Source: Eledone cirrhosa (lineage: Eukaryota). Taken from it: 64,000 nucleotides of DNA. A model generated the notes under the pieces. It was not told the DNA's origin and made no database searches. It was given only the letters and a program-made list of their open reading frames with translations. The translations under genes and the position numbers were made by a program. Below, in pieces: positions 5,758 to 51,468 of the stretch (position 1 is its first letter; each line of letters opens with the position of its first letter). The stretch lies in contig OZ024741.1 of the NCBI GenBank assembly GCA_964016885.1, positions 29,760,001 to 29,824,000 of the forward strand. The letters are read 5' to 3'.

Positions 5758-6791
<1,034 letters not shown>

Positions 6792-9068: not shown

Positions 9069-9111
<43 letters not shown>

Positions 9112-9119
<8 letters not shown>

Positions 9120-9230: not shown

Positions 9231-9231
9231 A

Positions 9232-12459: not shown

Positions 12460-12463
12460 CTTT

Positions 12464-12557
<94 letters not shown>

Positions 12558-17360: not shown

Positions 17361-17394
17361 GTTGAAAAGGAGTGGAAAAGGCGGGAAAGACCAC

Positions 17395-19396
17395 TTACCT
17401 TACTTCTCGTAGGGGAAGGACGGCTTTTCCATCCTTTTCACTGCTTGTGGCCTCCTCTGGAAGGATGTCCTTATAAATCCTCCTGGAGAGTGCTTGTCGG
17501 AAGTCTCCGATGTCTTTGGGGAATTTTTGTTTTAGTGTCATGTACGTTTTCTGTGTGATGCGAGTGATTTGTATGTGTGGAGGTGGTGTGAATTTTGGGG
17601 TTGTTGTGTAGTCTTTTTCTGTGATGCTGGTGTTGTGTTGGATGTAGTGTAATAATTGCTTGTTGTTCAAATTTAATGCTGTGTAGTGTGTATCGTTTTG
17701 GTTGTTTTGTTTTGTTTGCGTTTGTTGTGGGTTTGTTTCTGTTTCGCATTTTGGTGACTTTTGTGGTGTAGGTGATGGTGGTGTTGGAGTTAATGATGGT
17801 GATGGTGTTGGTGTTTGGGTTGATGGGGTTGGTGATGCTGGTGTGGATGGTGGCATATCTGTCCTAACTTTTTTGTTTCTTAGTTTATTTGTTTCCCTCT
17901 GTATTTTGTTTTTGGAGGGGGAAGGAAGAGAATTTTTTCTTTTTTGGTTTTTTTTTTTTTTCCGGATATCGTTTCCCACTCCTCGTCGTCACAATCTGTC
18001 TCCAGTTGTGATAGGCCGGGGAGTGGAAAATCCTCCACAGCCGTTAGTTTTGGTTGTGGTGTGGTGGATGGTGTAGGCGCTGGTTCTAGTTCTGAAGCGT
18101 TGGGTGGTGGTGGTGTTGGTTTTGCTGGTGGTGGTAGTGGTGTTGGTTTTGCTACTGTTGCTGGGGTTGTTACTGTTATAGTTTCTTCTGTTGTTGCTGC
18201 TACAGTTGTTGCTGCCATCTCTGCTACTGGTGGTGTCGATGGTTGTGTCACTGGGGTGGGTAGGAGAGGTGGCCTCAACCTTTTAGCCTGAGGGCAGAAA
18301 GCCCTTAGGTGGGTTCCTTCACCACAAACGACACACCTAGGTCTTCTGCCCTCGACAATTACCGTGAGGTGGCTGCCGTCAGTGAGGTCTATTACCTCTG
18401 GGATCTCCTCAATGCTTTTTTGGTCCGCTTGGATCAGGAGCTCCATCCCAGATCCGGACCAGTTTTCCTGCTTTTCTTTTGCTACTGCTATTATTTTCGT
18501 GTTGGGTTCGATGCCGGCGAGGACAGCCGCTATTAGCCAGGGAATTTCGATGGCCGGTGGAACGTGGGTCACCCTGATCTTTACGAGTCTCTGGCCACAA
18601 TAGCTTGGGACGAGTGTGAGGTCGTCACTTTTTAATGGTGCCATGGAGTGTTCTCTAGCCTCCTCTGGTGTTTCAAAGAACACATCCACGGTTCCATACT
18701 TTTGCCCACGTCTGATGTGGGTTTTTCTTGCCCACACATGTCCCAAAGCTTTTTGGATTTGGGACTCGGATGCCCGTTCCACTCGGCGCGATTTTACATT
18801 TATTGTTCTATACGACACGGTGCACATGCGCCGATGCTCCATTTTATTAGGTTGGGGGGGGGTGGGGTGAGGCTGACCCTGTACCCATCTTTCTTTACCA
18901 TTTGTTTGGCATTTTCTAAATCTTCTTGAGTTACCGTGAACGCTTCGAATTGTTTTGCTACGATGGCGAAACTGAGGGTCGGTTTTATAATGTCATTGTT
19001 GTTGTTGTTGCTATCGTTATTTGTGTTAATCTTAATTTTTGTTTCAGTTGTGGTGGTGGTGACGTCATTCGTCTTTGGTGCGGAAGAGTCCATTTTGCTT
19101 GATTTCATTTCGACATCACGAGTTAAGTTATTTTTTTCTTCTTTTGTTTCTGTTGTCGCGGTGGTGGTGGGGGTGGTGGTTGTCGCGGTGGTGGTGGTGG
19201 TGGAGGCTTTAACACCTGCAGTCATTGGTAATGGCGGGAAATGAATGTCTGCCTGAGACAAATTTAAAATATTGCTACTGCTTATATTTTTTTTTGTGTT
19301 GGCAAACGTAGTAACATTTACAATGGTGGTGTCGGTGTGAGGTGTTATTTTGTGAGGAAGGCTTTCAGCTGCTTCGTGCAGAGGGGAATTAGCCAT
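17395..19396 (-). pseudogene. LINE ORF1 (gag-like, CCHC zinc knuckle), frameshifted at homopolymer runs
   Basis: VEGRRPRCVVCGEGTHLRAFC and Pro/Thr-rich linkers. Split over the ORFs 18800-19396, 17880-18842 and 17395-17979. Confidence 0.85.
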
Positions 19397-19604
19397 TTTT
19401 TTTCAAAGAAATGTTTGGATAATAATAAAAGTTAAAATTTTGGGCACAAGGCCCCAATCTTTTTGGGTGTCCTTTTCGGAAAACAATGTATGTGCGCTTA
19501 TAAACAGTTAACAATAAAATTTTCCATAAATGACAATTTTTAACAAACGGAAATAACAAACCTTTGCGGAGCTCACGATGATACGATTTACTAAGTAGGT
19601 CGCC

Positions 19605-19642
<38 letters not shown>

Positions 19643-19890
19643 TTTCTTTATTAACCACAAGGGTTTGCATAAAGTAGACATTAAGGACAGTGCAGGACAA
19701 TACAGGACGGTACAAATGGGCATTTCTGCGTGTAAAAAACAAAAACAGAGGATGTAACAAAAAATAAGAATGAAAAATTCCGCAATAGGGGGGAGACTTC
19801 GGAGGGACATTTGTGGAGAAAGCACAGTAAAAAGACACAATGACCCTGACCACCAAGGCAAGTGCCCTCTTCCAGTTTTCCACCTTTAAT

Positions 19891-22800
19891 TTACAGATAT
19901 ATACTCAGAGTAGGCCCATTCACTCGGGCCATTCTTGCTTCTCTCACCCATCTTTCAACAAAATGCTGGGAAGAGAGCACTTCCCTCTCTACTCTGATTT
20001 TCCTTTTCAAATGAAATTTGAAAAAGTCAATCAGAGCATCATCGAAGAGGTAAGTGCTCGTCTTCAGCCCTTTCAAACGTGTCCACCATACTATCTCTTT
20101 CGCCATGGCCACCAGACAGATAAAAACTGCCTGCCCTTCCCGGCTAAAGGAAGGGGGCGGGGCAATCCTCACGATGGACTCAGATGATAGCCGGATCCGT
20201 CCTAAACGCGACAGCAGGTGTTCGACATAAACCCACAAGTCAGCAATTTTCGGACACTGGATGAGTGCGTGCAGGACGGTTTCGTCGCCCTGCGCGCATC
20301 TCGGACATGCCCGACTGACGGCACCTCCATGCCTGTAGAGTTTATCCCGAACTGGCAAGGCTCCTCGGTAGCACTGCCAGGCCAGAGATTTCTGGAAATT
20401 GTCCATAGGTCCCGGCCCGAAAGTTCTTCCGTAGAGATTGGCTAGTTGATTTTCGTCGACGCCTAGAGTTTCCCGAAGTACGTCGTCGCTCTTCCTCTCC
20501 ACTAACCCTCTATAGAACGCCGAGGTGGAGTTTCCAACGATCACATTGCCCGATTGGTCGAGGGCTGTGAGCGCCTGAAGACATTCCCGTCTCCAGGCGC
20601 TCCCTCTCGGTCTTCGCTTGACCCAGGACTGCAGCTCCGTCAAGGAAACGAGCTGGGGAAATACGTGTCTAGCAAACGGCGACCACACCTGATAACCGTC
20701 GAGGAAGAGGTGGAGATGTCGTAGCCTGAGCGCGTGTCTGCGCATCATCAGCCACGGCATGCCCAGCCCTCCACGTAGCGGGTGTTGACAACAGATGGAC
20801 CGCCTGACCATCGGAGCGCGTTCCTTCCACAAAAAGCGAAAGAGCAAACGCTCCAGCGCAGTCAGGCGAGGCTTAGGACAAGGTACGACGGTCAAGCGGT
20901 AGCAGATGACAGACGCGGTGTACGCGTTAGCCACCTCCGCTCGAACTTTCAGGGATAGCTTCTTCTCCGCCCATTTCTGGGTAAGAGAAGCCACCCTGCT
21001 CGTCACCTCGTCCCAGTTTTTGTCCGCCTGGAGGTCCGGACCGAAACAGACCCCTAGCAATTTAACCGGTCCGTCCGTCAAGCGTCCGACGACGCTGTTG
21101 GACGGCATGGACCTGCTTCTCCAGGTGCCGAGCTGCAGGCCCACTGACTTTTCCTGGTTGATCATTGCTCCTGTCACCGCTTCGTATTCTCTTAGTGTAG
21201 TGCAGATCGCCTCGATGTGTTTGGCGTTCGACACAACTACGGTGACATCGTCCGCATATGCTGACATGGATCTTCCGCATCCTAGTTCGCGCGGGACGCC
21301 CCTCAAGGTCTCCAGTTTGTGCAGTAATGGCTCGAGAGTCAATACGTACAAGAGGGACGAGAGGGGACATCCTTGGCGGACCGAGCGCATGATGTTAAAC
21401 GGTTCCGAAAGGTGACCGTTCACTCTCACCACAGAGCAGATGTCGCTGTGCATGGCAGCAATCCAGCCTCTGAAGACGGGCCCAAAGCCAGCCGCCCTCA
21501 GGACTGCCGCTAGGTAACGATGGTCGACCCTATCGAAAGCTTTCGACTGATCTAAATTGATCAAGCACCCACCCGTGCAAGGTTCCCTAGCTACCCTCTC
21601 TACGATGTATCGCATGAGGTGGAGATGTCGTGGATGGATCAGTCGGGAATGGCGCATGTCTGCGCCACTCCACCAGACCACCAACGACAAGCGTCAACCT
21701 CTTTGCTAGCACCTTGGCCAAAATCTTGAACTCTGTGTTTAGCAGAATTATGGGCCTGAAATTATATATGTTATCCCCCTTGTTCGGATCCTTTCTCAGC
21801 AGTGCCACCGCTCCTCGTCTCACAGAACTGGGAATTCTCCCGTTCTGTTGCCATTTGCAGTAGACGTCCGACAAGAGGCCTCCGAACAAGTCTGGCATCT
21901 GTACGTAAAGTTCATAGGGCAGACCATCCAAACCAGGCAATTTATCCCTTGTGCAACTAGTCATTGCCTCCCTTACTTCAGCGGCTGTTATCGGCTTTTC
22001 GCAACACTCCGCCTCAGTGGCCGAGAGCCGCGGCAGTCCATCGAGGTAGACACTAAAGCCCATCCCTCGACCCGGCCCACCGCGGCCCCCGAACAGCTGA
22101 GCGAAGTGTCGCTAAAAAGCTTCACACATTTTCCCGGATCGGGTAGCATGCACCCGTCGTGGTCCACTAAAGACCGGATCGTGGCTTTGTTGCCACGACG
22201 CGCCTCCGCCACTCGGGCCCATTGAACGGCTTTCGTCCCATCGTGTCTGAGAGCACGCACCCTAGCTCTGACAACGCAGCCTTCGTGCTTTGCATTGAAG
22301 AATTGGTCAAGGGCCAATTTCGCCGCAAGCACGTCGGTCGCAATGCCTTTGCTAAGCGCCTCGTCTAATTTTTTAACTAGTTCTCCCTCTGCTCTATTTT
22401 TCTCTATTGCTAAAGCCTTACTAAACCTAATCGATTCTATTGTAATCGCTCTTTTCAGAGCAAACCACCACTTGTTGTTCACGATAGCCCCCGTCAACGC
22501 CGGCTTAACTAGTTCGCTAATCCGGTCTCTGTAGGCCTTGCGCGCTGGTAAGGACGCGTTTAGCTTCCAGTAGCCGGGTCCTCGTCTATGAAGCCTATCT
22601 AAGTCAAGCACACAGATCACGAATTTGTGGTCCGTGTAGCTGACTATCTTGAATTGTGGACAGCCTATGCTAGACCTATCTATTTCCCTACAAAATATTC
22701 TATCTAGATATGATCTGGATGACCAGATGCGACTTGTCCAAGTCCACATTGGCACATTCGGGAAATCCAATCGGTACCTATCAGACAGTTCAAAACGCCT

Positions 22801-23306
22801 GAGCAGGTTGGTGAGGCTCTTGCACCATCCACCCCTATCCGCTAATCCCACACAGTCCCAGCGTGCATCTAAGAGGCCGTTCCAGTCGTCCACTAACACT
22901 AAAGAGCGGGACGTTCCAAGAAAGGTCTCCAGACGCCGGAAGAAATCAGGCCGCCCTGCTCCTGTCGGAGCATAGACGGCCACTAGCCTGAAAGCTTGCC
23001 CGTCTCCGCTGGTCACGTCCAGCACCACCAACTTACCCTCTGCATCCAGGAAGATGGCCCGTATGGCGAGATCCAAACCTCTCCGAAAAAGCACAGCAAC
23101 TCCTCCCGCGATCCAAGACGGCTGGGAGATGCGTACACATCGTAGCCGCCGAAGATCGGTGCGAAGGCCTGTGCTTCGGAGATTCTGGTCTCGCTGATGG
23201 CCACTACATCTATGTTTAGTGACCTGAGGTCGTTGAGCAGGTGACCCTGCTTCCATGACGACCCCAAGCCACGCGCATTTATGCTGCCTATTCTGAGTGA
23301 GGTCAT
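19891..23306 (-). pseudogene. LINE ORF2 (APE-RT) with several frameshifts
   Basis: MTSLRIGSINARGL start, YADD and CPRC, colinear with copy 1. Confidence 0.92.
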
Positions 23307-23339
23307 GTTTAAAATAGAGTGGAAAAGATGGGAAAGACC

Positions 23340-25479
23340 ACTTGCCGTACTTTTCGTAGAGGAGGGATGGTTTTTTCCATCCCTTTTCACTTGATCGTCT
23401 GGTGAAGGGACCGTTGAATCGTCCCTTCGGCTGGTCGTCGGCTCTTCTATGAGTAAGTCCGAATATACTCTTCGGTTGAGAGTCCCTCCTAGGTATCTGA
23501 AATCACCAACTGCGTTGGGGAATTTCGTTTTATTGTTTCTGTATTGTTTCTGTGCTATTTTTAGCAGTCTTATGTTAGTTGGCGTTTTGATTGGTGCTGG
23601 TATTATGTAGTCGTGTTGTGAAATGTCTGTGTGTTCAATTATGTAAGTCATTAGTTTCTTGTTGTGTGTATTTATTGCTGTGCATTTGTTTTTCTGAGGG
23701 TGGGGTGTGGTTCTGCTATTTTCTTGTCGTTGTTGCTGGGTGTGTGTGTTTTGTTGTTGTGTTTGCGATGTTGGTGCTTGTGGTGGTGGTATTGACGTTG
23801 TTGTTGTTGTTGGCGGTGGGGTTGTCGCCGGTGGTGATGGTGGTGCTAGTGTGGGTGGTGATGGTGTTGGTGGTGTTGCTGCTGTGAGTCTCTTTGCAGT
23901 AGCCTTTACCCTTTTTACATTTCTTTCCTCCCTTTTCGAAGGCGACGATGCGCTGCTTCTGCGTTTGTGCCTTCTTACGACCTTTTGCCTTCCCTCTCCC
24001 ACCTCACACTCCATGTTTTATTCTGTGAGGTCGGGGAGGGGTACCAGCTCCACTCGTTCACTTGTTGTTGTTGGTGATGTTTGCACTGGAGTCTCTGTTG
24101 CAGCTGCATTTGGTATTGCTGTTGTTGTTGTTAATACTTCCACTGCTGCTGCTGTTTTTGATTTCCGTGGCGTGGGTATGGGTGCTACGGACCTATCGTT
24201 CCTGGTTGCCACTTGTCCTGTTGCTGGTAGCCGTGGAGCCGTTTTCGGAAGGAGGGGGGTTTTCTCCTTTCTCAGGGTCTTCTCGTTGCAGAAGGCCCTG
24301 AGGTGAGTCTTCGATCCACAGCGAAAGCATTTCGGGCGTTTGCCCTCAACACTTATGGGGAGTTGAGTGCCGTTATCGAAGTCTATCACATCCGGGATAG
24401 CTTCGATGCACTCCTGGTTGGTTTGGATTAACATCTCAATGGAGGTGCCGACCCAATCTTCTCGTACTTTTTTCTATACTTGCAGTACAGTCGTTTTGTC
24501 CTCGATTCCGACGAGGACAGACGCGGCCAGCCAAGAAGGGGCCATCCCGGGGGTTGGGGGGGGGGGGGGGGCGTGCGTCAGTTTGACCCTCACAATTTTT
24601 TGCCCGCAGTAGGAGGGCACCAACGCCATTTCCTCGCTCCTTAGCGTCACTAAGGATTGAGCCTTTGCCTCCTGGGGTGTGGCAAAAAGCACGTCCACGG
24701 TGGCATATTTCTTGCCTCGGGTGATATGCGTTTTCCGCTGCCACGCAGACCCTAAGGCTTTTTGTATTTGAGATTATGTGGCTCTTTCAACCCTACGGGA
24801 TTTTGTGCTTACTGTACGGTACGTGACCGTACAGTGCTGTTGGGTTTCGAAAAATGTTTCGGCTGCCTTGCAGATTGCTCGGTGTCCGGTTTTCGTCACC
24901 ATCTTCTTCGCTTCCTCTAATTCCTCATTTGTTATGAGGATGGTTTCCAGGTTCTTTGCGATACCTGCAAACGAGATTTGTTTTTCTTTGTGGCTGTTGT
25001 TGTTGTTGTCGTCAGAGCTGCTGTTATTTTTGTTGTTGCTGCAGGTACTACGACTACTGCCGCCGCCGTTGTTGCTGTGGTTGTTGTTGTTGTTGTTGCT
25101 GCTGCTGCTATTGTTGATGCTGCTAATGCTGTTGTTGTTTATGCTGCTGATGATGCTGTTGCGGCTGCTACTGTTGTTTTCCTTGTCACTGTTGCTGCTG
25201 TTATTACGGCTGCTACTGCTATTATTCCTGACGTCAGACGAATGAAATGGGTTTTCGTATTTCCCACACACCTTTTTCGTCGTTGTCGTCGTCGTCGTGG
25301 AGAAATCTTGCTCGCTTTGCACGTGATTTTTCTTTTCTGGCGTCGCTTGCGAAAGAGATGAGAGACACATTTAGAGAAGAGAGGGAGAGAGACAATCTTC
25401 TCTCTGCTGTAGTGACGATTGAGGAAGAAGAAGACGGAATGAGTGGGAGTGATCTATGAAAATTCTTTTTCGTAGCCAT
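23340..25479 (-). pseudogene. LINE ORF1 (CCHC knuckle), disrupted
   Basis: VEGKRPKCFRCGSKTHLRAFC and LVPSYCGQKIVRVK, homologous to copy 1 ORF1. Confidence 0.82.
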
Positions 25480-26769: not shown

Positions 26770-29700
26770 AAAACCCCGTGACCAAGAAATACTGGGATGG
26801 CGGCCGGAGGGGAATAGCCGTGTCTCTAGGGGAGGATGACCCGTCTAATTTGGTTGACACTCGTCCTAGAAGTGGTTACACGAAATGATTACCCCTTGGC
26901 GGTTAAGGATAAAACGCGACAAAATAAAGTAAATGTCAAATGATAAAATCTCATACCGGATCGACCGTCACCCGGGTTAAAAAGGGCCGCGTCCCTCAGA
27001 GAGGAACCAGACTGGAGTCGAAACATCAGCTAATGGTTCAAACCTTCCCATCACTTCGGAGCTGGAGACCTCCCGTAACCGGAATACTCCTACTGTTGGC
27101 CCTCCATGCTCACCACCAAGAAATCCAAAGAAAAAGAGAGAAAAATGGTCAAGGGAAGACAATAAAGAAGTCCTTGAGGCTTTCTACACTGCCATGTACT
27201 ACCCATCAAATAGATCGAATACGGAACAGACATATATCAACTGGAAAAAGAAACATCCCGAAAACAGAGGCTATATTGACAGTAACAAACTAGCCAATAT
27301 ACGAAGAAATATTGTTAAAAAAAGTTACTAACAGATATAGAAATTGATCAGATCAAGCTATTAGCACAAAGTCAGCGAAGGGAAAATGAAACATGTGTCA
27401 GTGAAAACGAGGTAAATTGTAACACTTCGAACCCCAGGGTTGGGGCGGAATCACTGACAACAGAACAAATTAAAAAAGGATCGAGAAAGTGGAGGGAGTG
27501 CATGCTCAAGATGAAACTCAAAATGAAAACAATGAGATCGTGAATGATAAAGAAATGAATGAGAATGAACTTGCCAACTTGAAGGATGAAATTATGATCG
27601 AATGGATGAAAATGAAAGAATCTGACATGGGGGAACGAGACACTCTCCCTAATATCCAGAACTCCAAACAGAACCAAAAGATAATACACAAGACTAACAT
27701 AATTTTGAAAGACATTATCATCACAAACAAACTAAACATTACTGATTTAAATCATCTCTATTATGCATCGGCTAAACTCACCACTCACTTATGTGGAGTG
27801 AAAATGAAAAAACAAAGGAATTCCCACAAGAAATCTACTTGGCAAGAGAACATCAATCGCCAAATAAACCTTCTCCGATCTGACATAGACATTTTAACAA
27901 ACTACAAAGTAGGTGAACATGTTAAACAAACTAAACTTAGAAAATGGAAAAAAAAATGCAGTATAAAATCAACAAGTGACATAGACATGCTGATAGAAAT
28001 AATCAAGCAAAAAGTGTCGGCCAAAGCTGCTCGTATAAGGCGCTTTGAAAAACGATCTAGATTCTATAAGGACAATAATATGTTCAAAAACAACCAAAGA
28101 AACTTCTACAGAAAAATTGGCAAGTCAACAATAACTGCTAAATCAATACCACCCAAGGAGGAAGTGTAAGAATTCTGGGAAAAGATCTGGACCGAAGAAA
28201 AAGTTCATAATATACATGCCCCATGGATAGACAGACAAATGAAAGATACAACTCACCTTGAAGAACAAATATGGGAAAATATAACAGTTGATCAGTTACG
28301 TTTGGCTCTTAGAAAAACCAGCAAATGGAAATCCCCAGGAAAAGACAAACTACCAAATTTTTGGATAAATGCCTTCACAGAGTCACATAAGCTGTTAGCC
28401 CAACTTTACAATGAAATAGTTAAGGAGCCAGAAAAGATACCATCATGGCTAGTTAACGGTATTACATTCCTGCTTCCGAAGAATGATGAGACAAACAATC
28501 CCAAAAATAACAGACCGATAGCTTGCTTGACCACAATGTCTACAATTTTAACATCAGTCCTAACTGAATATACATATGACCACCTGATAACAAATGATCT
28601 ATTTCCCAATGAGCAGAAAGGATGTAAACGAGGCTCATATGGCTGTAAGGATCAGCTTTTGGTTAACAAAATGATACTGGAAGTTGTCATAATAGACACA
28701 AAAATCTATCAATTGCTTGGATAGATTATAAAAAAGCATTCAATGGTTTGCCACACAGTTGGATTGTAAACGTTTAGAGATTTTCAAAATATCTCCCGTT
28801 GTCAGGAGCTTCCTGTCATTCAGTATGACGACATGGAAAACGACACTCCTTTTGAATAGTGAAAAAGAATCACTGGAAGCTGGAGAAGTTAATATTAATT
28901 GTGGAATTTTTCAGGGTGACTCTTTATCACCGCTTTTATTCTGCATCGCACTTATACCATTAAGTAAAATGCTCAATGAAACAAAACATGGATCTAAAGT
29001 CTATGACAAAACCATTAATCACTTGTTCTACATGGATGACCTGAAACTATTTGCAAAAAATGATGAACAATTGCAAGGGCTATTATCCACTCTGGAGCAT
29101 TCAGTGATGACATAAAAATGGAGTTTGGACTAGATAAATGCGCCAAAGGAATGTTCACCAGAGGAAAGCTGCTGAAAAGTTCAGACATTAATCTTGATCG
29201 GGGGAACGTGATAAGAGAACTTGATCAAGAAAAAACTCACAAATATCTACGTGTTTGTGAAGGAGACAGAATCAAGCACTCGACAATGAGGGAAAGGATA
29301 AGGAAGGAATGTTACCGCAGAGTAAGAACAATCTTAAGAACGGAATTGAATGTAAGGAATAGGATCGATGCCATAAACACCCTTGCCATACCAGTAGTAA
29401 TCTACAGTTACAATGTCATCAACTGGTCAAGCACAGAGATCTGTAGGCACGATACAAAAATTTGAAAATTCTTAACCGTGCACAGAATGCATCACCCTAA
29501 GGCAGATATAGATAGAATATATCTCCCTAGGAAAGAAGGGGGAGGTGGATTAATCCAGTTAGATATTGCGTTGAAACCTGCAACATTGGATTATCTACAT
29601 ATCTAAGAGAATCACATGATTGGATGATCAAACTTGTTTTGAAACACGAAAGCATCAAAAGATCATACTCCATTACAAAAGATGAACACAGATACAATAA

Positions 29701-30753
29701 TGGACTACAAATTTCAGAAGTTCCATTTACTACTGAAATGGAAAACACAGAAGAAGCAAAGCAGGTAAAAGTAACTGCAAAGGAAGAACTGCTACAGAAA
29801 CTGGCTAAGAAATGGCAAGAAAAGCCTATGTATGGAAAATACCCAGAAAGAGCTAACAATCCTGATGTTGACAAAACTTTAACCCATCAGTGGTTGGCAT
29901 CCTCTGGACTGAAATCGGAGACTGAAGGACTGATTATATCAGCACAAGATCAGTGTCTGCCAACAAAAAATTACCAAGCCAACATAATAAAAAATGGATG
30001 CAACCCATTATGCCGTTTATGTAAAAAAACAACCAGAGACCATTGATCATATAATTTCAATGTGCAGTCCTATAGCTCCAACCGAATACCTAAACAGGCA
30101 TGACAGAGCTGCACAATACATTGGATAATGTGTAAGCATTTTGACCTGCCCCATCAAAAGAATTGGTGGGAGCATCAACCACCTCCCATACTTGAAAAAG
30201 ATCACATCTCAATCTTATGGAACTTTAGCATCGAAACAGACCTAAAAATAGATGATATAATACTGAATAGACCTGATATAATACTGAAGGACTTTAAAAA
30301 GAGGGTATGCTTGCTAATTGATATGTCCGTGCCAATAGACAAGAATATATCTATAAAAAACATTTGAAAAATTGAGCAAGTATAAGGACCTGGAGATAGA
30401 AATTGGAAAAATGTGGAAATTGAGAACTAAAACAATACCAGTGGTTGTAGGCGCTCTAGGAATGATACCTAATGGGTCTAATGATTACTTATCGCAAATC
30501 CCAGGAAAGCCGCGTATAGGAGAAATACAAAAGATAGTACTAATGGGAATTTCCCATATACTAAGGAAGATTCTGTCAAATTAAGTACATCACAAGTCTA
30601 AACACCTAAAGATGCATGTGTGTGAATGTATGTTCTTTCTTGAACATGGCGGACCTTGTTGTCTCTTGAGGTCACTGGTTGTGACTTGGTGATAACTCGT
30701 ATGAACTTAAAGCAAGATAAATCAACTGTAATAATAATACTAATAATAATAAT
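26770..30753 (+). mobile_element. R4/Dong-clade non-LTR retrotransposon (single ORF: RT, CCHC, restriction-like endonuclease), disrupted
   Basis: WKSPGKD, RPIACL, EQKGC, GIFQGDSLSPLLF, HLFYMDD, GLKSETEG...AQDQ, CRLC and RPDI...IDMSVP...KYKDL. 3' (TAA)n tail. The 5' end is approximate. Confidence 0.9.
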
Positions 30754-31939: not shown

Positions 31940-32129
31940 TCGCAAGATGTTGCAGAGAAAAGGTGGCAGTAAATATGATCGTATGTTTGTCCATTTCGTG
32001 ATAATGACTTGATATTCTTTAATCATCAATTAATTTACAATGTGAGTCACGTGATTGTCTCCCTCACCATCCTGCGGAGAAACACCTTCTCTATTTTGTC
32101 CGCGGGGTGGCCAGTGAGAGGGCCGCTAT

Positions 32130-32335
32130 TTGCCCATAGTGGAGAGAGCAGGTGAGACAGAGGCAGTGACAGTAGAAGTTCCATTGTATCAGTCCGCGAC
32201 TAACCCAGGTTCTGCTGCACGTCGGTCTAAGGAGGTCAAACTCTTCAAATACCGGTCGCTATCCGACAGGTTTGCGGTTGCACCCTTGGCAGTGGAGACT
32301 TCTGGTAACTCCCTACTCACCACCATAGGCGCTGA
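32130..32335 (+). mobile_element. Fragment of the restriction-like endonuclease domain of a non-LTR element
   Basis: PGSAARRSKEVKLFKYRSL...PLAVETSG matches the K..KY...P.AVET.G RLE pattern. Confidence 0.55.
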
Positions 32336-32829
32336 ATGGTACTAATTTGAATTACCAGAACTGTAAATATGAGCGAAACAAGTAAACATTAAACAATCTT
32401 TTAAATAAATTAAAATACAATTTAAATATTTACCTCTTCTAGTGGCATGACCGACGGTTTCGCTTATCAGAAGATTGGAAATTCAGAGAATTTCCAATGG
32501 AAAGATATAGATCTTCATATAGCTTTTCCAAATCTACTAGACATAAGTCCGTATAGATGTAGATATATCACCCTCTGCCCAGTGAGTGAATCAAGCCGTT
32601 AAAATGACCCACACACTTATTGGACCGTTAAAAAAAGCGGGAATTATAGACTCGCTGATATTTGATGCTGCAAGAAATAGCAGCATGATAAAGCATTTTT
32701 TTTCTCTACATTAAGGAGAATTAGATAAATGATATAGATATCCCAGTAGGTACTAGGTACTAATGGAAATATAAATGGTGTCTATAATATCTACATCTAT
32801 ACGGACTTATGTCTAGTAGATTTGGAAAA

Positions 32830-32909
32830 GCTATCTGAAGAACTATATCTTTCCATTGGAAATTCTCCGAATTTCCAATCTTTTGATAAGCGAAACCGTC
32901 GGTCATGGC
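32830..32909 (+). ncRNA. Type I hammerhead ribozyme with long stem II
   Basis: GCTAT-CTGAAGA-actatatc..attggaaattc.gaatttccaat..gataagc-GAAAC-cgtcg-GTC-ATGGC. Confidence 0.78.
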
Positions 32910-33293
32910 ACTAGAAGAGGTAAATATTTAAATCGTATTTTAATTTATTTGAAAGATTGTTTAATGTTTACTTGGTCCGCTCATATTTACAGTTCTGGTA
33001 TCTCAAATTAGTACCACAGAACAGCCACTATTATAGACACCATATATATTTCCATTAGTACCTAGTACCTACTGGGATATCTATATCATTTATCTAATTC
33101 TCCTTAATGTAGAGAAAAAAATGCTGTATCATGCTGCTATTTCTAGCAGCATGAAATATCAGCGAGTTTATAATTCCCGCTTTTTCTAACGGTCCAATAA
33201 GTGTCTGGGTCATTTTAACTGCTTGATTCATTCACAGGGCAGAGGGTGATACATCTACATCTATACGGACTTATGTCTAGTAGATTTGGAAAA

Positions 33294-33373
33294 GCAATCT
33301 GAAGAGCTATATCTTTCCATTGGAAATTCTCTGAATTTCCAATCTTTTGATAAGCGAAACCGTCGGTCATGGC
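33294..33373 (+). ncRNA. Type I hammerhead ribozyme, second tandem copy
   Basis: GCAAT-CTGAAGA-gct...agc-GAAAC-cgtcg-GTC-ATGGC. A third, core-mutated copy lies on the minus strand at 32444-32523. Confidence 0.78.
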
Positions 33374-33443
33374 ACTAGAAGAGGTAAATATTTAAATCGT
33401 ATTTTAATTTATTTGAAAGATTGTTTAATGTTTACTTGTTCCG

Positions 33444-33496
<53 letters not shown>

Positions 33497-33512
33497 TAAA
33501 AATACAGATTAA

Positions 33513-33563
33513 AGTTTCAGCAAAGAATCGCTGCTTTCACCCTTAACGGGATCTTCTGAAACT
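33513..33563 (-). ncRNA. Hammerhead-like motif, family C
   Basis: AGTTT-CAGAAGA-t-ccc-gttaa-ggg-t-GAAA-gca..tgc-TG-AAACT. Confidence 0.5.
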
Positions 33564-33605
33564 ATCGAGCCCGCTTTGGATTTTAGTCTTCAAATGTATT
33601 ATTAT

Positions 33606-33681
<76 letters not shown>

Positions 33682-33764
33682 GTTATTCCGGGTTGAATCG
33701 GAAATAACCACAGTAAGTAAGGTACACAATACATAGCAGAGTATAAAAGTTTTAATATAGATGA

Positions 33765-33813
33765 GATTCTACAGGACTAGAACTGTTTCATTCTTTAGAA
33801 ATCATCAGGAAGA
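33765..33813 (-). ncRNA. Minimal hammerhead, family A
   Basis: TTC-CTGATGA-tttctaaagaat-GAAAC-agttctagtcct-GTA-GAA. Confidence 0.7.
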
Positions 33814-34524
33814 CCGGACAAATCAAATCAGACAACACTCGCCTCCTACGTTTGGGACCTCAAAAGGAACTCCACCCCCTTCACGCTTAAATGGAAAATA
33901 CTCCAGAAAGCGCGCTCTTACAACGGAGGACACAAGAGCTGCGACCTTTCTATTTCAGAGAGCTACGAAATTTTATTCGCCAAGGGCCCGCTACTGAACA
34001 AACTCTCTGAACACTGCCCGAACTGCATGCACAAGAACTTTGCAACTTTCAAACACTTTAAGCCAGTGTTAAAGCCCGATGGCTAAAAATGACCTCCCCC
34101 TATTGGCCCCCTATACCTCCTCCCAACCTTACCCCCACCCCTCCTCAACCTGAAATACGGCCACTATGGTTATGTGAGTACCTCCTCCCTATCTACATTT
34201 TCTGCCTGTAGAGGTGTTTTTATGTGCCTGCGTATATGCGTATATTTATTGAGTACTTATTTATTTGTATGTGTATATATTTGTATGTGTATATATTTGT
34301 CTGTATGTGTGTATATGTATGTGTATGTGTGTATATATATATATATATGTATGTGTGTATATGTGTTTTATGTGTGTATATTTATGTATGTATATGTATG
34401 TATATATGTATATATATGTGTATATGTATATATATATATATATATATGTGTATATATATATGTGTGTATATATGTGTATGTATGTGTATGTGTATGTATG
34501 TATGTATGTATGTATATGTGTGTG

Positions 34525-34939: not shown

Positions 34940-34993
<54 letters not shown>

Positions 34994-35883
34994 GGGAGGG
35001 TCATATTTGCGTAATATTGCCAGAATTAATAACAGAACCCACTCACTGTTTGGTTGGTTTTCGCTTCTCGCTGTCTTTTATATATATATATATCTGCGAT
35101 CTAACTTACTCGGTCCTCAATGTTGCCATTGACTGACCGGCGGTCAAAAATAATACAGATACAATATAGACACAAACACATATATATAGTTTACATAATT
35201 TACATAAATCTTTCGTTGCACATCTGCAACATCGTCAGTGGTGTTATATTCATTGTTCCTCCTGTTGTGTTGTATGTCTACGCCATTTTTTTTTGTTCAG
35301 TCTGTCTATATATTTATTTATTTATTTGCTTGTTTGTTTATCTTATTTTATTTTGTCTTCTTTGCGCATGCGTTTGCGTGTGTGTATAGTGTTATGTGTG
35401 ATGTGTGACTAGTGTGTATAGTGTTGTGTCTGCTGGGTGACTAGTGTGTGTTTATGTGCTTGTGTATGTATTTGTTTATCTTATTTTATTTAATTTTATT
35501 TACTTATTTATACTTCTCTTAGGTCAGTGTTGTTTGTTTGGGTGTTGTTGTTGTTCCACTCATTCTTTCTGTTTAGCTTTGGTCTTCTAATTTCTATTTC
35601 ACTGGCCTCTCTGATTTGCCTATCTGCTGGGTCATTCCTATGTTTAGATATTATTCTAATTTCTATGTTGTCTATGTTACCGTCATGTTGTTGTCTAGCA
35701 TGTTCGTATAGTACTGACCCGTTTTTTCGTCCTTTTAGTTCCCCCCGTGTTGGTCTATCCTTTCACCTATGCTACGAGCTGTCTCACCTATGTATGTTGT
35801 TGTCATGTTTCTGCAAGTACCCTCTGTACATCTTATGCTATAGACTACGTTTCTAGTTTTACAGTTTATCCGGGGGTTCACCT

Positions 35884-38109
35884 GACAGAGCAGACCAGAG
35901 GCCCAACAACTTGGGATAAAACCTGTAGAAGGCTTGGTTAGCCTCAAGCAGCGCACAAGGGATGGTGAGGTAGTGTGTCTACCCACAGATACGTCTGGTA
36001 GGATGTCAATAGATAGCATGCCGAACTACATCGAGGCAATGCAACCCCACATCACCAACACGAGCGAAGTTGCACAACTAACACACGATGGGAAAGAAAA
36101 AATCCTCAACGCTCACATGATGATGTGGACTGACATCCTAAAGCCAAGCAGACGCACTGCCAACAACTTACAGGCGTCTAACAATGGCATACCACCCTTG
36201 TATGGGCTCCGCAAAGACCACAAGACAGTCGACGACCCGACAACAGGACCACCAACAAGACCCGTATGCGGAGCTAATATAGCTAGCAACTACAGGATCT
36301 CCTACTTCCTCTCAATGGTTATACGCCCCATAATGAAGATGTCCCCAGATGTATGTGAAAGTACAGAGGACCTCCTCAGCAGAATCAGTGAGTGCAACAA
36401 AAACAGGAGCCTATCCAACTGCATAATAGGCAGCATGGATGTGGTGTCACTGTACCCATCCATTAACATTGATTTTGCTGTGAAAAGATGTGTGGAGATG
36501 ATCATTGAGAGTGAGGTGGAGTTCTGCGACTTCGACACAGACGAACTGGGCCTCCTAGTTAGACTTACCTACGACACTGACTACCTAGACAGCCATGACC
36601 TTAGATGTTTCTGCCCTAGTAGACCTATAAGAGGTAGACCCCCCACCATAACCTCAATGGCTAAAAAGACTCCCATAGGAAGGTGGATTGGGTGGACCAA
36701 AGCTATACGGACCCCCCAAAACACTGATCAGGTAAGAAAAATGGTCGCACATGCAATAGGGGCTAGTATCAAAACTACCCTAAAGGGCCATATATTTTAG
36801 TTCAATGAGAAAATCTACACCCAAAATGAGGGAGCAGCCATCGGCGTCGGCATAGCTGGTGATGTTGCCAACCTTTTCATGGTATGGTGGGAAAGGAGAC
36901 TTAAAGATCTCCTTAATGAAAGCTCCATAGACCTCATCATGTACTCTCGTTATGTAGACGATATCAATATAGTTATAAGAACACCCCCACTAGAGAGCAC
37001 TAACAAGTTTGATTTAGAACGTAGCACGATGGAAAGCATCCAGCAGATAGCTAATTCCATACACCAGAGTATAACTGTAACTATAGACTTCCCTTCCAAA
37101 CACCCTAACAATAGACTACCTGTATTAGACACAGAACTCTGGATTAACACTATAGACGAGAGAGCCCAAATTCTCCACTCACACTATGCTAAACCCATGG
37201 CCTCCAAATACCTGATACTCAAAAACTCAGCAATGTCCAGTAGTGCTAAGTTTAATATTCTGATCGCAGATTTGGTACGAGTGATGAAGAATGTGTCCAG
37301 CATGTGCGACCCAACAGAAATGGAAGGACACATCCAACACTTCATCAACCGCATGCAGTTCTCTGGCTACAACCAAAGAGACAGAGTCAGAGTATACGAA
37401 GGAGCCATGGAAAAGTATAAGACCCTCATAGAACTGGACATGAAAGGAATTTTCCCACTATACAGGAGCAAATCATGGAATAGCTTAGATAGGGCTAGAC
37501 ATAAGATAGGGAAGGCCACATCATGGTACGACAACCAGAGATATCAGAGTGTCATGTTTGTGGACGCCACCCCTGGAGGGAAATTAGCTAACCAGTGTAG
37601 AAAGGCCCTGAGAAAGACCCACTTAAAAATAAAGGTGGTAGAAAAGCCAGGAACCACCATAAAATCCCTGATCAGCAAAACCTACCCTTTTAAGAAAACC
37701 CACTGTACTAATAGGAAATGTATCATATGTAAGGTGAACCCCCGGATAAACTGTAAAACTAGAAACGTAGTCTATAGCATAAGATGTACAGAGGGTACTT
37801 GCAGAAACATGACAACAACATACATAGGTGAGACAGCTCGTAGCATAGGTGAAAGGATAGACCAACACTGGGGGGAACTAAAAGGACGAAAAAAACGGGT
37901 CAGTACTATACGAACATGCTAGACAACAACATGACGGTAACATAGACAACATAGAAATTAGAATAATATCTAAACATAGGAATGACCCAGCAGATAGGCA
38001 AATCAGAGAGGCCAGTGAAATAGAAATTAGAAGACCAAAGCTAAACAGAAAGAATGAGTGGAACAACAACAACACCCAAACAAACAACACTGACCTAAGA
38101 GAAGTATAA
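35884..38109 (+). pseudogene. Penelope RT + GIY-YIG endonuclease, 5'-truncated, one stop (36798) and one frameshift (~37890)
   Basis: PPLYGLRKDHK, RPVC, SMDVVSLYPSI, GAAIG, YSRYVDD, LPVLD and CxxC...VVYSIRC...TYIGET. Confidence 0.92.
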
Positions 38110-38372
38110 ATAAGTAAATAAAATTAAATAAAATAAGATAAACAAATACATACACAAGCACATAAACACACACTAGTCACCCAGCAGACACAACACTATA
38201 CACACTAGTCACACATCACACATAACACTATACACACACGCAAACGCATGCGCAAAGAAGACAAAATAAAATAAGATAAACAAACAAGCAAATAAATAAA
38301 TAAATATATAGACAGACTGAACAAAAAAAAATGGCGTAGACATACAACACAACAGGAGGAACAATGAATATA

Positions 38373-38426
38373 ACACCACTGACGATGTTGCAGATGTGCA
38401 ACGAAAGATTTATGTAAATTATGTAA
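38373..38426 (+). ncRNA. Hammerhead-like motif in the Penelope pLTR (inverted copy at ~35190-35244)
   Basis: CTGACGA-t-gttgca-gatg-tgcaac-GAAA-gatttatgtaaatt. Stem II is strong and stem I is weak. Confidence 0.5.
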
Positions 38427-38813
38427 ACTATATATATGTGTTTGTGTCTATATTGTATCTGTATTATTTTTGACCGCCGGTCAGTCAATGGCAACATTGA
38501 GGACCGAGTAAGTTAGATCGCAGATATATATATATAAAAGACAGCGAGAAGCGAAAACCAACCAAACAGTGAGTGTGTTCTGTTATTAATTCTGGCAATA
38601 TTACGCAAATATGACCCTCCCCAAATATAACAATATCTGTTTCGACACACGATTTCATATAAAAAACCTCGCAAAACTATATATATATATATTTATACAT
38701 ATGCATGTGTGTATGTGTGTGTGTGTGTATATATGTGTATATGTGTGTGTGTATATATATGTGTGTGTATATGTATGTATATGTATGTATATGTGTATGT
38801 ATGTATATATATA

Positions 38814-40131: not shown

Positions 40132-40180
40132 GATTCCTGATGATTTCTAAAGAATGAAACTGTTCTAGTCCTGTAGAATC
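40132..40180 (+). ncRNA. Minimal type I hammerhead ribozyme, family A
   Basis: GATTC-CTGATGA-tttctaaagaat-GAAAC-tgttctagtcct-GTA-GAATC. Stem I covaries with the 12411 copy. Confidence 0.82.
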
Positions 40181-40195
40181 TCATCTATATTAAAA

Positions 40196-40245
<50 letters not shown>

Positions 40246-44318: not shown

Positions 44319-47300
44319 TCTTTGTTGTAGCTGAGAGCCCTTTTACTCTGATTTTCCATCTCCGTGATAGCAGGATCATCCTCTACATGAGATATGTGCT
44401 TACACACACTCACACACTTGCATCTTTATCTTTTCCACACACACATTCTCTCTTACTCAGAACTGTGCCATATCTATGTATATTTGACAAATGGGAGCAA
44501 TATATCTCAGATATAGTACATAAAGAATACAATGAACATTTACTGCAAGATACCTGGTGAGACATACAGATGTTTCAGTAACTTTGTATGCTATAAAGTG
44601 ACCTGAACTGACTGAGGCCTTACAGACTTGGTGGGAGTACACGACGAGAATTATTTCTGCCTTTCGCAGTTTGAGTTCAGATCCTGCCGAGGTCAACTTG
44701 ATGTTTCATTCTTTCGCAGTCAATAAATAAGTTCCCGACTCTGCCGCAAAATTTGTAGCATTGTTAGAGCTGCGGACAAGATGTCTTACAACATCTAACC
44801 CGGTTCTATACTTTCTGTGTTTATATTCGGCATAGAGACACAAAAACTCCCTGATGGGAAGGCTGTCGCTAATAACATACTGATAGGACGTATCAAAGGG
44901 TAGAATGATATCATGCAACACCAGCATATATCTGTAGTTTTGAAGACCAAGTCCAGCACGACAACTTTTCACCATACTAAACAAACTCACAGGCAAATGG
45001 CTCCAGTGTCTCAGAAATCTTAGAAACAACTTGGATAACGAATTAACACCCATCAATGACGGCAAAGATAAATAGGAATAAAAATTGCTTGAGGTTTTAC
45101 ATGATCATAAATTTATAAGATGCTTAATCGTGATAAGGTTTTTGCTCTCGGATAATTGACACGTCGAGATAACAGCGACATTTTATAATGATCCTGCAAC
45201 AAATATCTGTTTTCATCTCATTAATCCTAAATACAGCCACAAAAACCCGGAAGAATTTTAATATATATGATTGCAGTGGTCTTGCAGACACGAACTATAT
45301 TAAGTTGGCAACATGACAGTTCTAAATATAAATATTAAGACTGACAATGTTGAGGATTTCGTGAACTTTTTAAACAATATTCTGGAAACTCATTTGGAAA
45401 TACTTTACGCTTCATATCTTCTTGAAGCTTTTGTGCAAAATATTTCTCCCAGTTACATTTGAGAATTTGTAATAACCAAGTAATGCTAAATTGGAATATT
45501 TTGGAACGCATTTCCTTCCAAATTCTATACTACGTGTTCTCGAATAGGGACCCCCATCCCATCTCATAGAAAAAATAGTATTTATTCTTGAGTAGAAAGC
45601 TGAAATATTCGATTACAAAACAAACACAAGCCTTTGTAAATTGTTCTGTTTCAACAATCGATATTTTCGGAGTTCTGGTTTATGAGTTATGTTGGAATAT
45701 ATGTCAGTCTCATTAAGTAAGGCGAAAATTATCTCGCATTAAAATTCTCTATGTTGTTATGATTTTAGTGGTTGTTTTGTCCCGCGTTAACCCTGATACA
45801 GCAGAACTATAATGGAATGCATGTCAGGTTTTATAACCAGGTTTCTTGAGACATTATAAAAGGAGGCATTATATTATATTTCCTTCCATTTTAAAATGGC
45901 AATGTTGTGATTCGAGTGACATTTTGCTGTTGTTTCCAACATATCAGGCAAACGATTCTTCTAAGAATATTTGTCATAAACGATAATATTTTCCAACTTA
46001 CTTTGGGGAGAGACAAAAAAGCATTTGTATTTACCCAATAAATGGCATAGGCAGTGAATTTATAGACTCATTAAAATATGAGGCGGCGAATTACAAGAGT
46101 CATTAGAAGGTCAGATAGTATGCTTTGCAGTATTAGTTCCGTCTCTCCACTCTCTGAGTTCAAATCCTGCCGAAGTCAATTTCGTCTTTTAGCCTTTCTA
46201 GATCGGAAAAAAGTACCTGTCTAGTACTGGTATCGATTCCACATCTATATTTCTTTCTCACTTCCATTTCCTCACTTTCCTTATCCTTTTTTGAAAGAAA
46301 TCTGATGTATTCCGACATGGAGAAGGTTAGGTTCCGCCAGGTTTTAAAATGTTCAAGAAACGTCGTCCCAACGATTCCCTAAGGAGTACCATGCTTGCAT
46401 GTATATGATAGATTTTTGAGGGTTTTTTTTTCTGGCTGTCTGTTATCTGAGTTCAAATCCAACCGAAGTTAACTTTGCTATTTATTCTATTTGAGTCTTT
46501 CAATATATTTAACGTTCATTCCTTCTCTTATTATCCCTTTTGTCTTTCTCAAATCTGGATACATTACGCTGCAAAAAAAGGGTCATTATGGACCGCTGAC
46601 AGAGTTAATTTCACAGGAAATGGAGAAGGGTTGAACGAGAGTGTTAGCAACTAACTTTCATTGAGAGAAATATTTTATATGCTTTGGGAAGCGTGAGAAG
46701 TCGGACCGATGTGCATGCTGTGTAGCACGGCACAGACATCAAGAATGAATTACAGTAGCTGTGGGCAAAGCAAGAATATGTCAGAGAATACTAATATTTG
46801 GTTAACATTAACTATTAAATTAATACCTAGTTGATCTGGGCACCGGCAATTACATGAGCAGACAATTTATCTTAGAAAATGTTTGACGTTGAGTGTCTTA
46901 CATAGAAGAAGGAAAAAAGAAAATTACCTGCTGGCGCAATAATTTCAAGTAATCAAATATATTGGTGTAATGCCAATGGAAATTAGGCTGTCTACAGTAA
47001 AATCATGTCTCAAGAAAATGTGTGCTTAGAACTGATTCCTCTACATTTCATTTAAAAAAAAGTGTTGAAAGGTACAAAGAGAAGCAGAACAACAATAAGA
47101 AGTAATTCTTATCGCTTGAAGAACAAATGCAATATAAATAACAACTGCAGATTTCTAAGACACAGCTAATAAGAGCGAAGAGAACAATTATGAAGACAAC
47201 AAAAAAAACAAAACAACTACGACAACCACAAATCAAAAAAGACATTACATAGAGTTTATTATGTATCAGAATATATTTAATTTGAAATATTTATAGAATG

Positions 47301-47793
47301 TTAAGTTAAAATTGTCCGTAATTCCATGGAATTCTATAGGAGCAATTCCTATTGATTATTTTTGAAGATAAAAGCTTTGATGACAATGAGGATGGTAATT
47401 GTATTATTGTTGTTGTTTTTGTTGTTGTTGTTGTTGTTATTATCATCATCATCATCCTCATCAACCTTTCCATTGTCATCATTTTCAACATCATCATCAT
47501 AATTTCTGCTGTGGATTTTATGAACGTCTTTGAAGTAACTTCGTGTAGGATTTGGATTGACCATGTTTATACTAATTAAAAAATTCAAAGCTCCTTTTGG
47601 AATATGTTGCAGACAGAATTATTTTGAGAAAATAGAATCCATTCCTTTAATTTTAAAGTGGAAAAAAGAAATTTGAGTTTTGAGATTTCATCTTATTTTT
47701 GGAATATTTTACAGAGAGAACTATTTCACGTAAGTTTAGTGCAGGGTGAATATGGAAATGTCATACATTAGATGTTGTAAACATTATTCTATT

Positions 47794-49401
47794 CAGGGCG
47801 GTGAATTGGCAGCATCGGTAGAGCGTCACACACACACACACCATGCTTTGCAACACAGAGTTATGACCCTTTACGTTCTGAGTTCAAATCCGGCCTAGGT
47901 TAACTTTGCCTTTCATCCTTAAGTGATCGATAAAATAAAGTACCAGTAATACACTGATATAATTGCTGGCCTTGTGCCAAAAGTAGAAACAATTATTTTA
48001 TTCAGATTTCAGCATTGATTCTTTTCCTAGTGTAAGGATGAGAGGTATTAACCAGAACGGAAGCAACACTGATCCTGAAATCTAGGTAAATTATTGTAAA
48101 ACATTAACAGTGGGTTAAATACTGGTTTCTGATTAGGGGAAGGGAGAGTCGATTAAATCTACCCCAGTGTGTTAGGGTGCTTTATTTTATCGACCCCTTA
48201 AGGATGAAAGGTAAAGCTAATCTTGGCGGGATTTGAACTCAGACCGTAAAGGTCCGTAGCTCTATGCTGCTAACCTTATTGTCCGACGCTCTACCAATTA
48301 TGCCAAACTACCACCCTTACAGTGGTTTAAATAATGGTTTCTTATATAGGCACTAGGCCAGTAATGTTGGGGGAGGAGAAAGTAGATTAAATCGACCCCA
48401 GTGCATTACTGGTACTTTATTTATCGACCTCGTAAGGATGAAAGGCAAAGTTAACCTCGGCGGGATTTGAACTCAGATCATAAAGGGCCGTAACTCTATG
48501 CTGCAAAGCATGGCGTCCGACGCTCTCCAGATTCTGCCAAACTACCACGCTTACAATGGTTTAAATAATGACACGAAAAAAGGTTAATGAAAAATATTGA
48601 GTAAATAAACTTTTTAAAACTAAGATTATAATGAATTTGTCACCAAAACACGAATTTTATTAGGATGGCAATCCACAAAATATCTTTAGAAATAGATCGG
48701 CTTGTTGAAACCAAAATGACGTACTTAGATGAGACATATTTCAATCGCTAACACTTTCATGAGATATCGAGATATTACGAAAAATAGAAGTAGCTTTCAT
48801 TTGCCAAACGTACACAGTTGGAGAAACGAACACTAACGCATTCTATCTGACCTTCTAACGACTCAACCAAATCACCGCCTCTTTACTAAATAATTGTTTC
48901 TACGTTTGGCACAAGGCCAGCAAGTACCCAGTGCATTACTGGTACTTTATTTTATTGACCCCGTAAGGATGAAAGGCAAAGTTAACCTCGGCGAGATTTG
49001 AACTCAAAATGGCAAAGGCCGTAACTTTATACGTCAAAGCATGGCGTCCGACCCTCTACCGATACTGCCAATCCACCGTCCTCTTTACTAAATAACATGT
49101 ATGAAATACAACTTTGAACATTAACAAGCTAGAAACATTAGGTTTCAGATGGAATGATGTAACAACAGAAGTCATTTTGGTACATTTTTATTATTAATAT
49201 TAGAGGATAAATCTTGCAATTAGTTAAAAACTATCATTCGTTCAAGAATGAATAATAAAAACATTTGCACCAAAACAAGCGCCCCCACTCTCTCTCTCTC
49301 TCACACACACACAGACATATATATATATATATATGTATACATACACGTTCAAATATATATACATATATACATCTCCCCCTTTCTCTCTCTCACTATGACT
49401 C

Positions 49402-49441
<40 letters not shown>

Positions 49442-50280: not shown

Positions 50281-50580
50281 AAAGAAAGAATGTAAAAATT
50301 GTGTGTATATAAGAGAGAATTTTGCATGGGATGAACATTTGATGTGTATATATAATGAAGAGTGGATGAAGAGGTGTCAGAAGATGGTGGGAAACTGCTG
50401 AAACGGAAAACCAAGAAAGAACTGGGCAGTACTGATTAGAGAGAAGTGGATGAAGGATCTGAACGATGGAAGGATACTGTCACGGAAAGGGCTTGTTCAA
50501 CACATGCTTACATCACGCAACCAGTAACGCTACACCATCAGAAAAAATGGCTCTGTCTAGTTTATGTATATGTAAATCTA

Positions 50581-51392: not shown

Positions 51393-51468
<76 letters not shown>

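Follow-up and report, generated by a model that had tools for sequence, protein, structure and literature searches.

A probable retrozyme copy with Penelope-type insertion marks in Eledone cirrhosa

Non-LTR retrozymes have been described in coral, mussel and axolotl, according to the cited parts of PMC7229834, and those of bioRxiv 10.64898/2026.07.22.740005 argue that retrozymes derive, as non-autonomous elements, from Penelope-like elements (PLEs). Which enzyme moves the retrozymes of animals, and whether an RNA circle serves as the template, has so far been inferred in the same portions of these two sources from co-occurrence and pLTR homology. The locus described here raises both questions for a single insertion: which enzyme copied it into the genome, and from what kind of RNA.

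Layout of the locus and its hammerheads

The window analysed is a stretch of 64,000 nt (contig OZ024741.1, positions 29,760,001 to 29,824,000 of the forward strand) of microsatellite-rich animal DNA full of retroelement debris. It holds a 464-bp non-coding unit arranged as a forward tandem of 1.43 units with an inverted 5' arm. Positions within the unit are given as phi, which counts nucleotides from the hammerhead cut onwards (the position less 32904, modulo 464). The parts are as follows.

32337..32789, minus strand: inverted, 5'-truncated arm, unit phi125 to phi112
32337..32370, minus strand: the "tail", a 30-34-nt 3' extension (phi79/83 to phi112) at the left insertion end only
32438..32541, minus strand: hammerhead copy C, degenerate, nominal cut after 32449
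32787..32789, no strand: inversion junction, 1-3 nt common to the arm and the forward array
32787..33450, plus strand: forward partial tandem of about 1.43 units, 5'-truncated at phi347, stopping at phi78-82
32812..32915, plus strand: type I hammerhead A, predicted cut after 32904
32905..33368, plus strand: 464-nt cut-to-cut monomer
32992..33022, plus strand: stem-loop phi88-118, with an AC bulge at phi112-113
33017..33028, plus strand: 12 unit positions, phi113-124, missing from the inverted arm
33276..33379, plus strand: type I hammerhead B, predicted cut after 33368
33447..33494, no strand: (TA)n microsatellite, the probable target, sharing ATAT with the right end of the element

The direct repeat (32789-32989 against 33253-33453) is 98% identical at a spacing of 464. 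The inverted arm spans 452 of the 464 unit positions plus a 1-nt insertion, and is 95% identical to 33029-33453 over 426 nt and to 32787-33016 over 230 nt. An assembly fold-back artefact was ruled out, as the arms are about 5% different (22/448). Within the 64-kb window there are no further copies of the unit, and a relaxed blastn found no family in the window that resembles it. A plasmid collection gave no match to the unit. One phage match (45 nt, AT-rich) was taken as chance, as was the single locus (L001) returned by a GTDB exact 23-mer scan, a 24-nt match with no further homology in apparent bacterial coding DNA.

The longest stop-to-stop frame inside the element is 63 aa, and the ORF with RT plus GIY-YIG that is the hallmark of an autonomous PLE is absent from it. 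Searches for a remnant of a PLE protein by tblastn with 83 PLE-type proteins gave a best E of 0.059, and 150 additional proteins gave nothing at E<=0.01; no tRNA was found. The monomer is more structured than its shuffles both as a linear molecule (z -3.6, 0/100) and as a circle (z -3.4, 0/60). A head-to-tail 464-bp repeat, a type I hammerhead in consecutive units, the lack of coding and a self-paired monomer are all features of retrozymes; tandem, hammerheads and non-coding character thus support the sequence-only reading of this DNA as a retrozyme. Such membership would fit all of the sequence features, and self-cleavage is predicted. A read-through transcript of the whole locus (32337-33453) is predicted to form a long duplex, 88% paired at -726 kcal/mol, which in this model would block the ribozymes and offer a dsRNA substrate.

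The earlier reading had also placed two tandem hammerheads 464 nt apart, and its motifs and coordinates were confirmed. CTGAAGA lies at 32835 and 33299 (the CUGAAGA core of hammerhead A is 32835-32841, the core of B 33299-33305), CGAAAC at 32891 and 33355, and an 11-bp inner hairpin at 32855-32879 and 33319-33343, whose pairs mostly have probabilities over 0.9. GUC sites stand where it had put the cuts, so that cleavage is predicted after 32904 and 33368. In helix I a 12-nt bulge separates 5 bp from 6 bp; helix II has 7 bp with a one-base bulge, followed by an internal loop and the 11-bp hairpin. In hammerhead A the helix II region takes up 50 nt (32842-32891), and helix III (32895-32903) is a near-palindrome of 3 bp with a 3-nt loop.

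To call these hammerheads canonical was nevertheless an overstatement: each copy carries a lesion, helix II is long, 0/3 copies pass a strict descriptor (10.1-11.1 paired, perfect 5-bp helix I), and Rfam does not match them. Copy A has an A10.1.C11.1 mismatch in helix II, and copy B keeps G10.1-C11.1 intact and has an A.G mismatch in helix I at 33296. The third hammerhead claimed on the opposite strand, copy C, is indeed present but has a broken core (AUGAAGA at 32518, C3->A), together with U10.1.C11.1 and a C.C in helix I. Position 10.1 (32842/33306/32511) reads A, G and U, the sole site among 201 to differ in all three copies; other hammerhead families in the window have U.U at the 10.1-11.1 pair. 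A type I descriptor with looser settings (core exact, at least 5 in stem I, at least 3 in stem III, mismatch tolerated at 10.1-11.1) finds copy A and matches 0/1000 shuffles of one unit; when one core mismatch is allowed, it matches 5/1000 shuffles. Rfam returned microsatellite noise only, with no hammerhead family, both for the whole window at the gathering score and for 32200-34300 at E<=10, a miss probably due to the long helix II. The hammerheads are type I and complete in outline, yet atypical and decayed.

Predicted folding suggests how such ribozymes might work. The 9-mer of helix III has no fold alone and forms a self-duplex of -11.3 kcal/mol. In a two-ribozyme transcript the helix III sequences cross-pair with p 0.83-0.99 (8/9 positions). 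Compared with a pair of single hammerheads, the double-hammerhead fold gains 5.4-9.5 kcal/mol; the double form is favoured because helix III is near-palindromic. Dimer dependence is known for animal type I motifs, in the cited parts of PMC4209133 and PMC7229834. Relative to the MFE, the active fold is less stable by 6-7 kcal/mol for copies A and B taken singly and by 8-10 kcal/mol for the double form, pseudoknots being outside the model in both cases. The helix I bulge UGGAAA can pair with UUUCCA of loop 2 (-6.3 kcal/mol), and this predicted pairing may substitute for the usual loop-loop contact. UUGGAAA and UUUCCA motifs occur twice each in 32818-32879, in the bulge of helix I, in loop 2 and in the two strands of the inner hairpin; alternative pairings among them could, in such a model, act as an on/off switch of the ribozyme. 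Decayed by 2-5%, the copies may cleave weakly or not at all at this locus.

Insertion ends, junction and neighbouring elements

Each outer end of the insertion corresponds to a 3' end of the unit, and the two are offset by 30-34 nt. From its start at phi347 the forward array extends to phi78-82, its right end being placed at 33446-33450, as ATAT belongs also to the (TA)n run. The outer end of the inverted arm maps to the AC bulge of the phi88-118 stem-loop, and the other end of the insertion lies just 5' of that stem-loop. The inner 5' ends are joined flush, with the microhomology ATA against copy C and 1 nt against copy B, and no target DNA stands between arm and forward array at the join. 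At the left flank there is no (TA)n, which is found at the right end only; no target-site duplication (TSD) is present, the longest word common to both flanks being 4 nt, and the insertion has no poly(A) tail. With neither (TA)n nor a TSD in the left flank, the end on that side may be due to later truncation and not to a start of reverse transcription.

A partial tandem, an adjacent inverted 5'-truncated copy, a one-end tail of 30-40 bp and a bias for (TA)n make up the published scheme of PLE insertions, according to the cited parts of PMC8557442. The present insertion, a single locus, has the inverted 5'-truncated copy beside a partial tandem and a 30-34-nt tail at one end. In Anolis PAc, as the available portion of PMC11167929 describes it, the tail is the stretch between two internal start sites of RT, and RT starts in an AC-rich stem-loop 111-118 nt into the ORF, the cut lying at +26; by subtraction of the figures given there, RT starts 85-92 nt past the cut. 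In PAc extension takes place on both DNA strands, and its main substrate is uncleaved RNA (same portion of PMC11167929). By analogy, we infer that the phi88-118 stem-loop is a candidate RT start site, its likeness to PAc being one of position and shape and not of sequence. Its stem pairs in the circle mostly at p 0.8-0.95, and the hairpin alone is modest (z -1.9, 10/200 shuffles). The insertion marks suggest that Penelope-like enzymes copied the retrozyme into the genome; the evidence from the ends is that of one locus.

The window contains several insertions of related build. A young PLE at about 34990-38680 lies in (TA)n and encodes an RT, a CX4CxxC linker and GIY-YIG at the C-terminus, in an ORF interrupted by a stop at 36800. 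It carries an 880-bp inverted 5' copy (5 differences), and its right end is 55 nt longer. The best named match of a protein from a neighbouring PLE is from Octopus vulgaris, at 64% identity, a single match that points to a probable octopod host. Pieces related to this PLE were observed at 8013-8254 and near 59200-59870.

A second hammerhead family (33679-34086, 12265-12472, 40134-40203 and 9110-9240), which we presume may belong to the Hydra clade, has a CUGAUGA or CUGAAGA core, a U.U at the base of helix II, a long helix III and a GUA cut. It ends in (TA)n 16-22 nt past the cut in 2/5 copies and 89-90 nt past it in another 2/5, and the fifth copy has no (TA)n run nearby. At 33808- the second family is located on an arm in inverted orientation and is followed by the C-terminus of an RT-endonuclease family of proteins with 1842 relatives, of which P0116 has RT motifs; Pfam gave no name for the 33799-34083 fragment or its relatives. 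A third, hammerhead-like family (1406-1446, 6801-6928, 33494-33564 and 51339-51521) shows the same kind of change in the core throughout (CAGAAGA in the copies read), mostly has G where the cut would fall, and is either a decayed or a variant ribozyme. In 5/6 copies it ends in (TA)n 23-25 nt past the nominal cut. Several of these insertions form short palindromes, often in the third family. Inverted arms are thus routine in the window, which supports the mechanism and lowers the surprise. Taken together, the two 3' ends 30-34 nt apart, the (TA)n, the microhomology and the PLE insertions of the same build nearby make the Penelope link, which the earlier reading had drawn from the inverted arm, stronger than it had been put there.

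Elements of other kinds were observed as well. The left flank (32118-32336) looks like the C-terminal end of what we take to be a restriction-like endonuclease retroelement, cut off near the insertion; the frame 32118-32342 found no homologue, only unnamed Atlas clusters. An RT-bearing non-LTR element occupies 27474-30046, and 5910-6789 is a fragment with inverted ends that resembles mariner. Dispersed repeats of 100-200 bp cluster in both orientations at 46100-50300, where 47795-48317 is an imperfect palindrome of about 520 bp. At 13940-24473 and 60743-63715 are tandem elements, presumably L1/Tx1-like, with an ORF1 and an endonuclease-RT ORF2.

Open reading frames of this presumed LINE type in the window, and the fact that inversion with microhomology is typical of LINE twin priming too, speak for a different retroelement as the mover. 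We consider this, or a DNA-level rearrangement of a satellite, very improbable. Twin priming predicts the outer end of the arm near phi347, whereas it is observed near the 3' end (phi112), and neither a poly(A) tail nor a TSD accompanies the insertion. It is the forward array, and not the arm, that is longer than one unit, and since the arm lacks phi113-124 the forward array cannot be a DNA copy of it.

The divergence of the arm bears on whether the insertion was one event. Arm and forward copies differ at 22/448 positions and A and B at 4/196 (about 5% and 2%; Fisher p 0.13), and arm-private changes number 6/9 (p 0.04). The higher divergence leaves room for two events or homogenisation: the inverted copy would be the older one, and either the forward copies were inserted later into that AT-rich spot or A and B were later homogenised, the ends in that case being unpaired. 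The changes in the arm resemble random decay, as two events would have it, and a PLE endonuclease is able to cut its own pLTR, in the cited parts of PMC11167929. Nevertheless, the difference in divergence is not significant at p 0.13, the join is flush with microhomology and no target DNA between, and the offset of the ends is within the tail range, and we regard two events as improbable. Editing of the arm template from A to I was also considered and rejected, 0 of the arm-private changes being A to G in the three-way region.

The RNA template

In the sequence-only reading, passage of the arm through the unit junction was what a circular or multimeric template would give. The arm does cross the cut site and the phase at which the array starts, but it runs only from phi125 to phi112, without crossing phi112-125. 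A cleaved linear monomer was not the template, because both cDNAs cross the cut site, the forward one twice; the RNA was continuous over the cut. A circle does not follow from this: PLEs reverse-transcribe their own hammerheads when these are uncleaved, and the cited part of PMC11167929 has the PLE starting reverse transcription downstream of its hammerhead on unprocessed RNA. Short junction reads would look alike for a circle and for a tandem transcript, since ligation into a circle restores the sequence already present in the genomic tandem.

The unit is contiguous across phi112/113 because the stem-loop spans it, and in the folding model this point looks native and the unit closes on itself. 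Restart positions that complete the phi88-118 stem-loop number 4/464 with Watson-Crick pairs and 20/464 when G-U is admitted, a post hoc count that includes the real position. If the locus were only the pLTR piece of an autonomous PLE, phi112/113 would be a seam, with three 5'-truncated cDNAs joined and no independent retrozyme or circle. The layout agrees with the PLE scheme in the cited parts of PMC8557442, where one copy is inverted, another truncated and a third longer; the arm never crosses phi112-125, short palindromes of PLE ends are common in the window, and retrozymes are homologous to pLTRs in those of bioRxiv 10.64898/2026.07.22.740005. The stem-loop pairs over phi112/113, so that the seam looks native; the 464 nt are without an ORF or a PLE protein remnant, and two cDNAs would have to stop no more than 12 nt apart. 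We hold such an origin to be unlikely. No autonomous partner sharing the unit sequence was found in the window by relaxed blastn, or in one supplement file of PMC8557442.

Our preferred reading, in which we have high confidence, is that the locus is a decayed copy of an animal non-LTR retrozyme, i.e. a non-autonomous PLE, copied by a PLE enzyme from uncleaved multimeric or circular RNA. A tandem source copy would be transcribed into multimeric RNA, which would cleave itself best as a double hammerhead and could give a 464-nt circle by ligation. Both strands of AT-rich DNA would be nicked by the RT/GIY-YIG protein of a PLE, working in trans, and RT would begin inside RNA continuous over the cut site, whether uncleaved multimer or circle. 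Two RT starts, at phi about 80 and phi112, would flank or lie within the phi88-118 stem-loop; one cDNA would extend over about 1.43 units and the other over 452 nt, their ends would be joined by microhomology, and the copies would afterwards have decayed by 2-5%.

More-than-unit copying from circles was proposed earlier for PLEs and retrozymes, in the cited parts of PMC4209133 and PMC7229834. Here the arm stops 12 nt short of one turn, which hints at a circle; the hint comes post hoc from one arm, and the forward cDNA went on past that point. A fuller reading would join PLE-driven reverse transcription on a 464-nt retrozyme circle with a new ribozyme variant. Both target strands would be primed on the circular RNA at the two PLE tail sites; one RT would have displaced its own product and run for 1.43 turns, and the other would have run into its own start and halted 12 nt before a full turn was complete. 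In this reading the ribozyme would represent a new variant of type I, in which a long helix II goes together with a loop 1/loop 2 pseudoknot; it would be dependent on dimers, silent in the circle and active only in multimers. We regard this combination as conceivable and rather doubtful.

Place among retrozymes and Penelope-like elements

The unit shares with the retrozymes described in the cited parts of PMC7229834 a non-coding tandem unit of low GC, a type I hammerhead per unit, a self-paired monomer, the presence of PLEs in the same genome and, apparently, the lack of any LTR/PBS/PPT organisation. Dimer-assisted cleavage, reported there for axolotl, is also predicted here. Those retrozymes are about 170-400 nt (150-450 bp repeats), whereas the present unit is 464 nt with only 1.43 units and has a helix II region of 50 nt with the inner 11-bp hairpin. 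Canonical metazoan type I hammerheads, as set out in the cited parts of PMC4209133, have a helix I of about 6 bp, a helix II of about 4 bp and conserved loop-loop nucleotides, a pattern from which helices I and II depart here; the short palindromic helix III permitting a dimeric fold is present in both. Plant LTR retrozymes differ in carrying a type III hammerhead in LTRs and a 4-bp TSD, in contrast to the type I hammerhead and lack of TSD seen here.

With PLEs (PAc/Poseidon of Anolis; cited parts of PMC11167929 and PMC8557442) the element has in common the partial tandem, the inverted 5'-truncated copy, the 30-40-bp tail at one end, 3' ends that lie about 80-110 nt past the cut and an AC-containing stem-loop. 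PLEs favour AT-rich or (TA)n targets and often show no discernible TSD, to which the (TA)n at the right end may correspond here. Unlike PLEs, the unit is without an ORF; in place of the minimal hammerhead of PLEs it has one in which helix III is full and helix II long, and it is without sequence likeness to the PLE ends in the window. Chlamys elements such as MRC1 (available portion of PMC8557442) are likewise ORF-less PLE passengers with pLTRs and head-to-tail copies, but are from green algae, mostly lack canonical hammerheads and have a 3' sequence common to an autonomous family, which was not found here in the window or in one supplement file of that paper.

The cited parts of bioRxiv 10.64898/2026.07.22.740005 reach the same conclusion about retrozymes, with family lengths of 51-972 bp that take in 464. 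The argument there draws on 35 genomes, among which these parts name no mollusc, and its evidence is co-occurrence and pLTR homology, whereas here it is the anatomy of an insertion for which no pLTR homologue was found. Only 1/9 tested retrozyme dimers cleaved in that study, in the same parts. Its main text has no arm or tail analysis, and the words "inverted" and "tail" are absent from the main text of PMC7229834. In the texts searched, evidence from a tail plus an inverted arm at a retrozyme was not found, nor did we find a paper describing an octopus retrozyme or the hammerhead motif of this unit. A giant-squid genome paper gives 235 Rfam hammerhead-1 hits, without analysis in the cited parts (PMC6962438).

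The class of element, the PLE link and each of the signatures have already been published, and we see in this locus a useful confirmation, probably in a new host group, and not a surprise. The phi88-118 stem-loop is a candidate cis signal that could be tested with purified PLE protein. A retrozyme with a PLE-specific tail and an inverted arm offers evidence of another sort, which bears more directly on the enzyme that moves these elements. If the circle reading were true, arm lengths just under 464 across this cephalopod family would be a genome-scale read-out of the circle as the template of retrotransposition.
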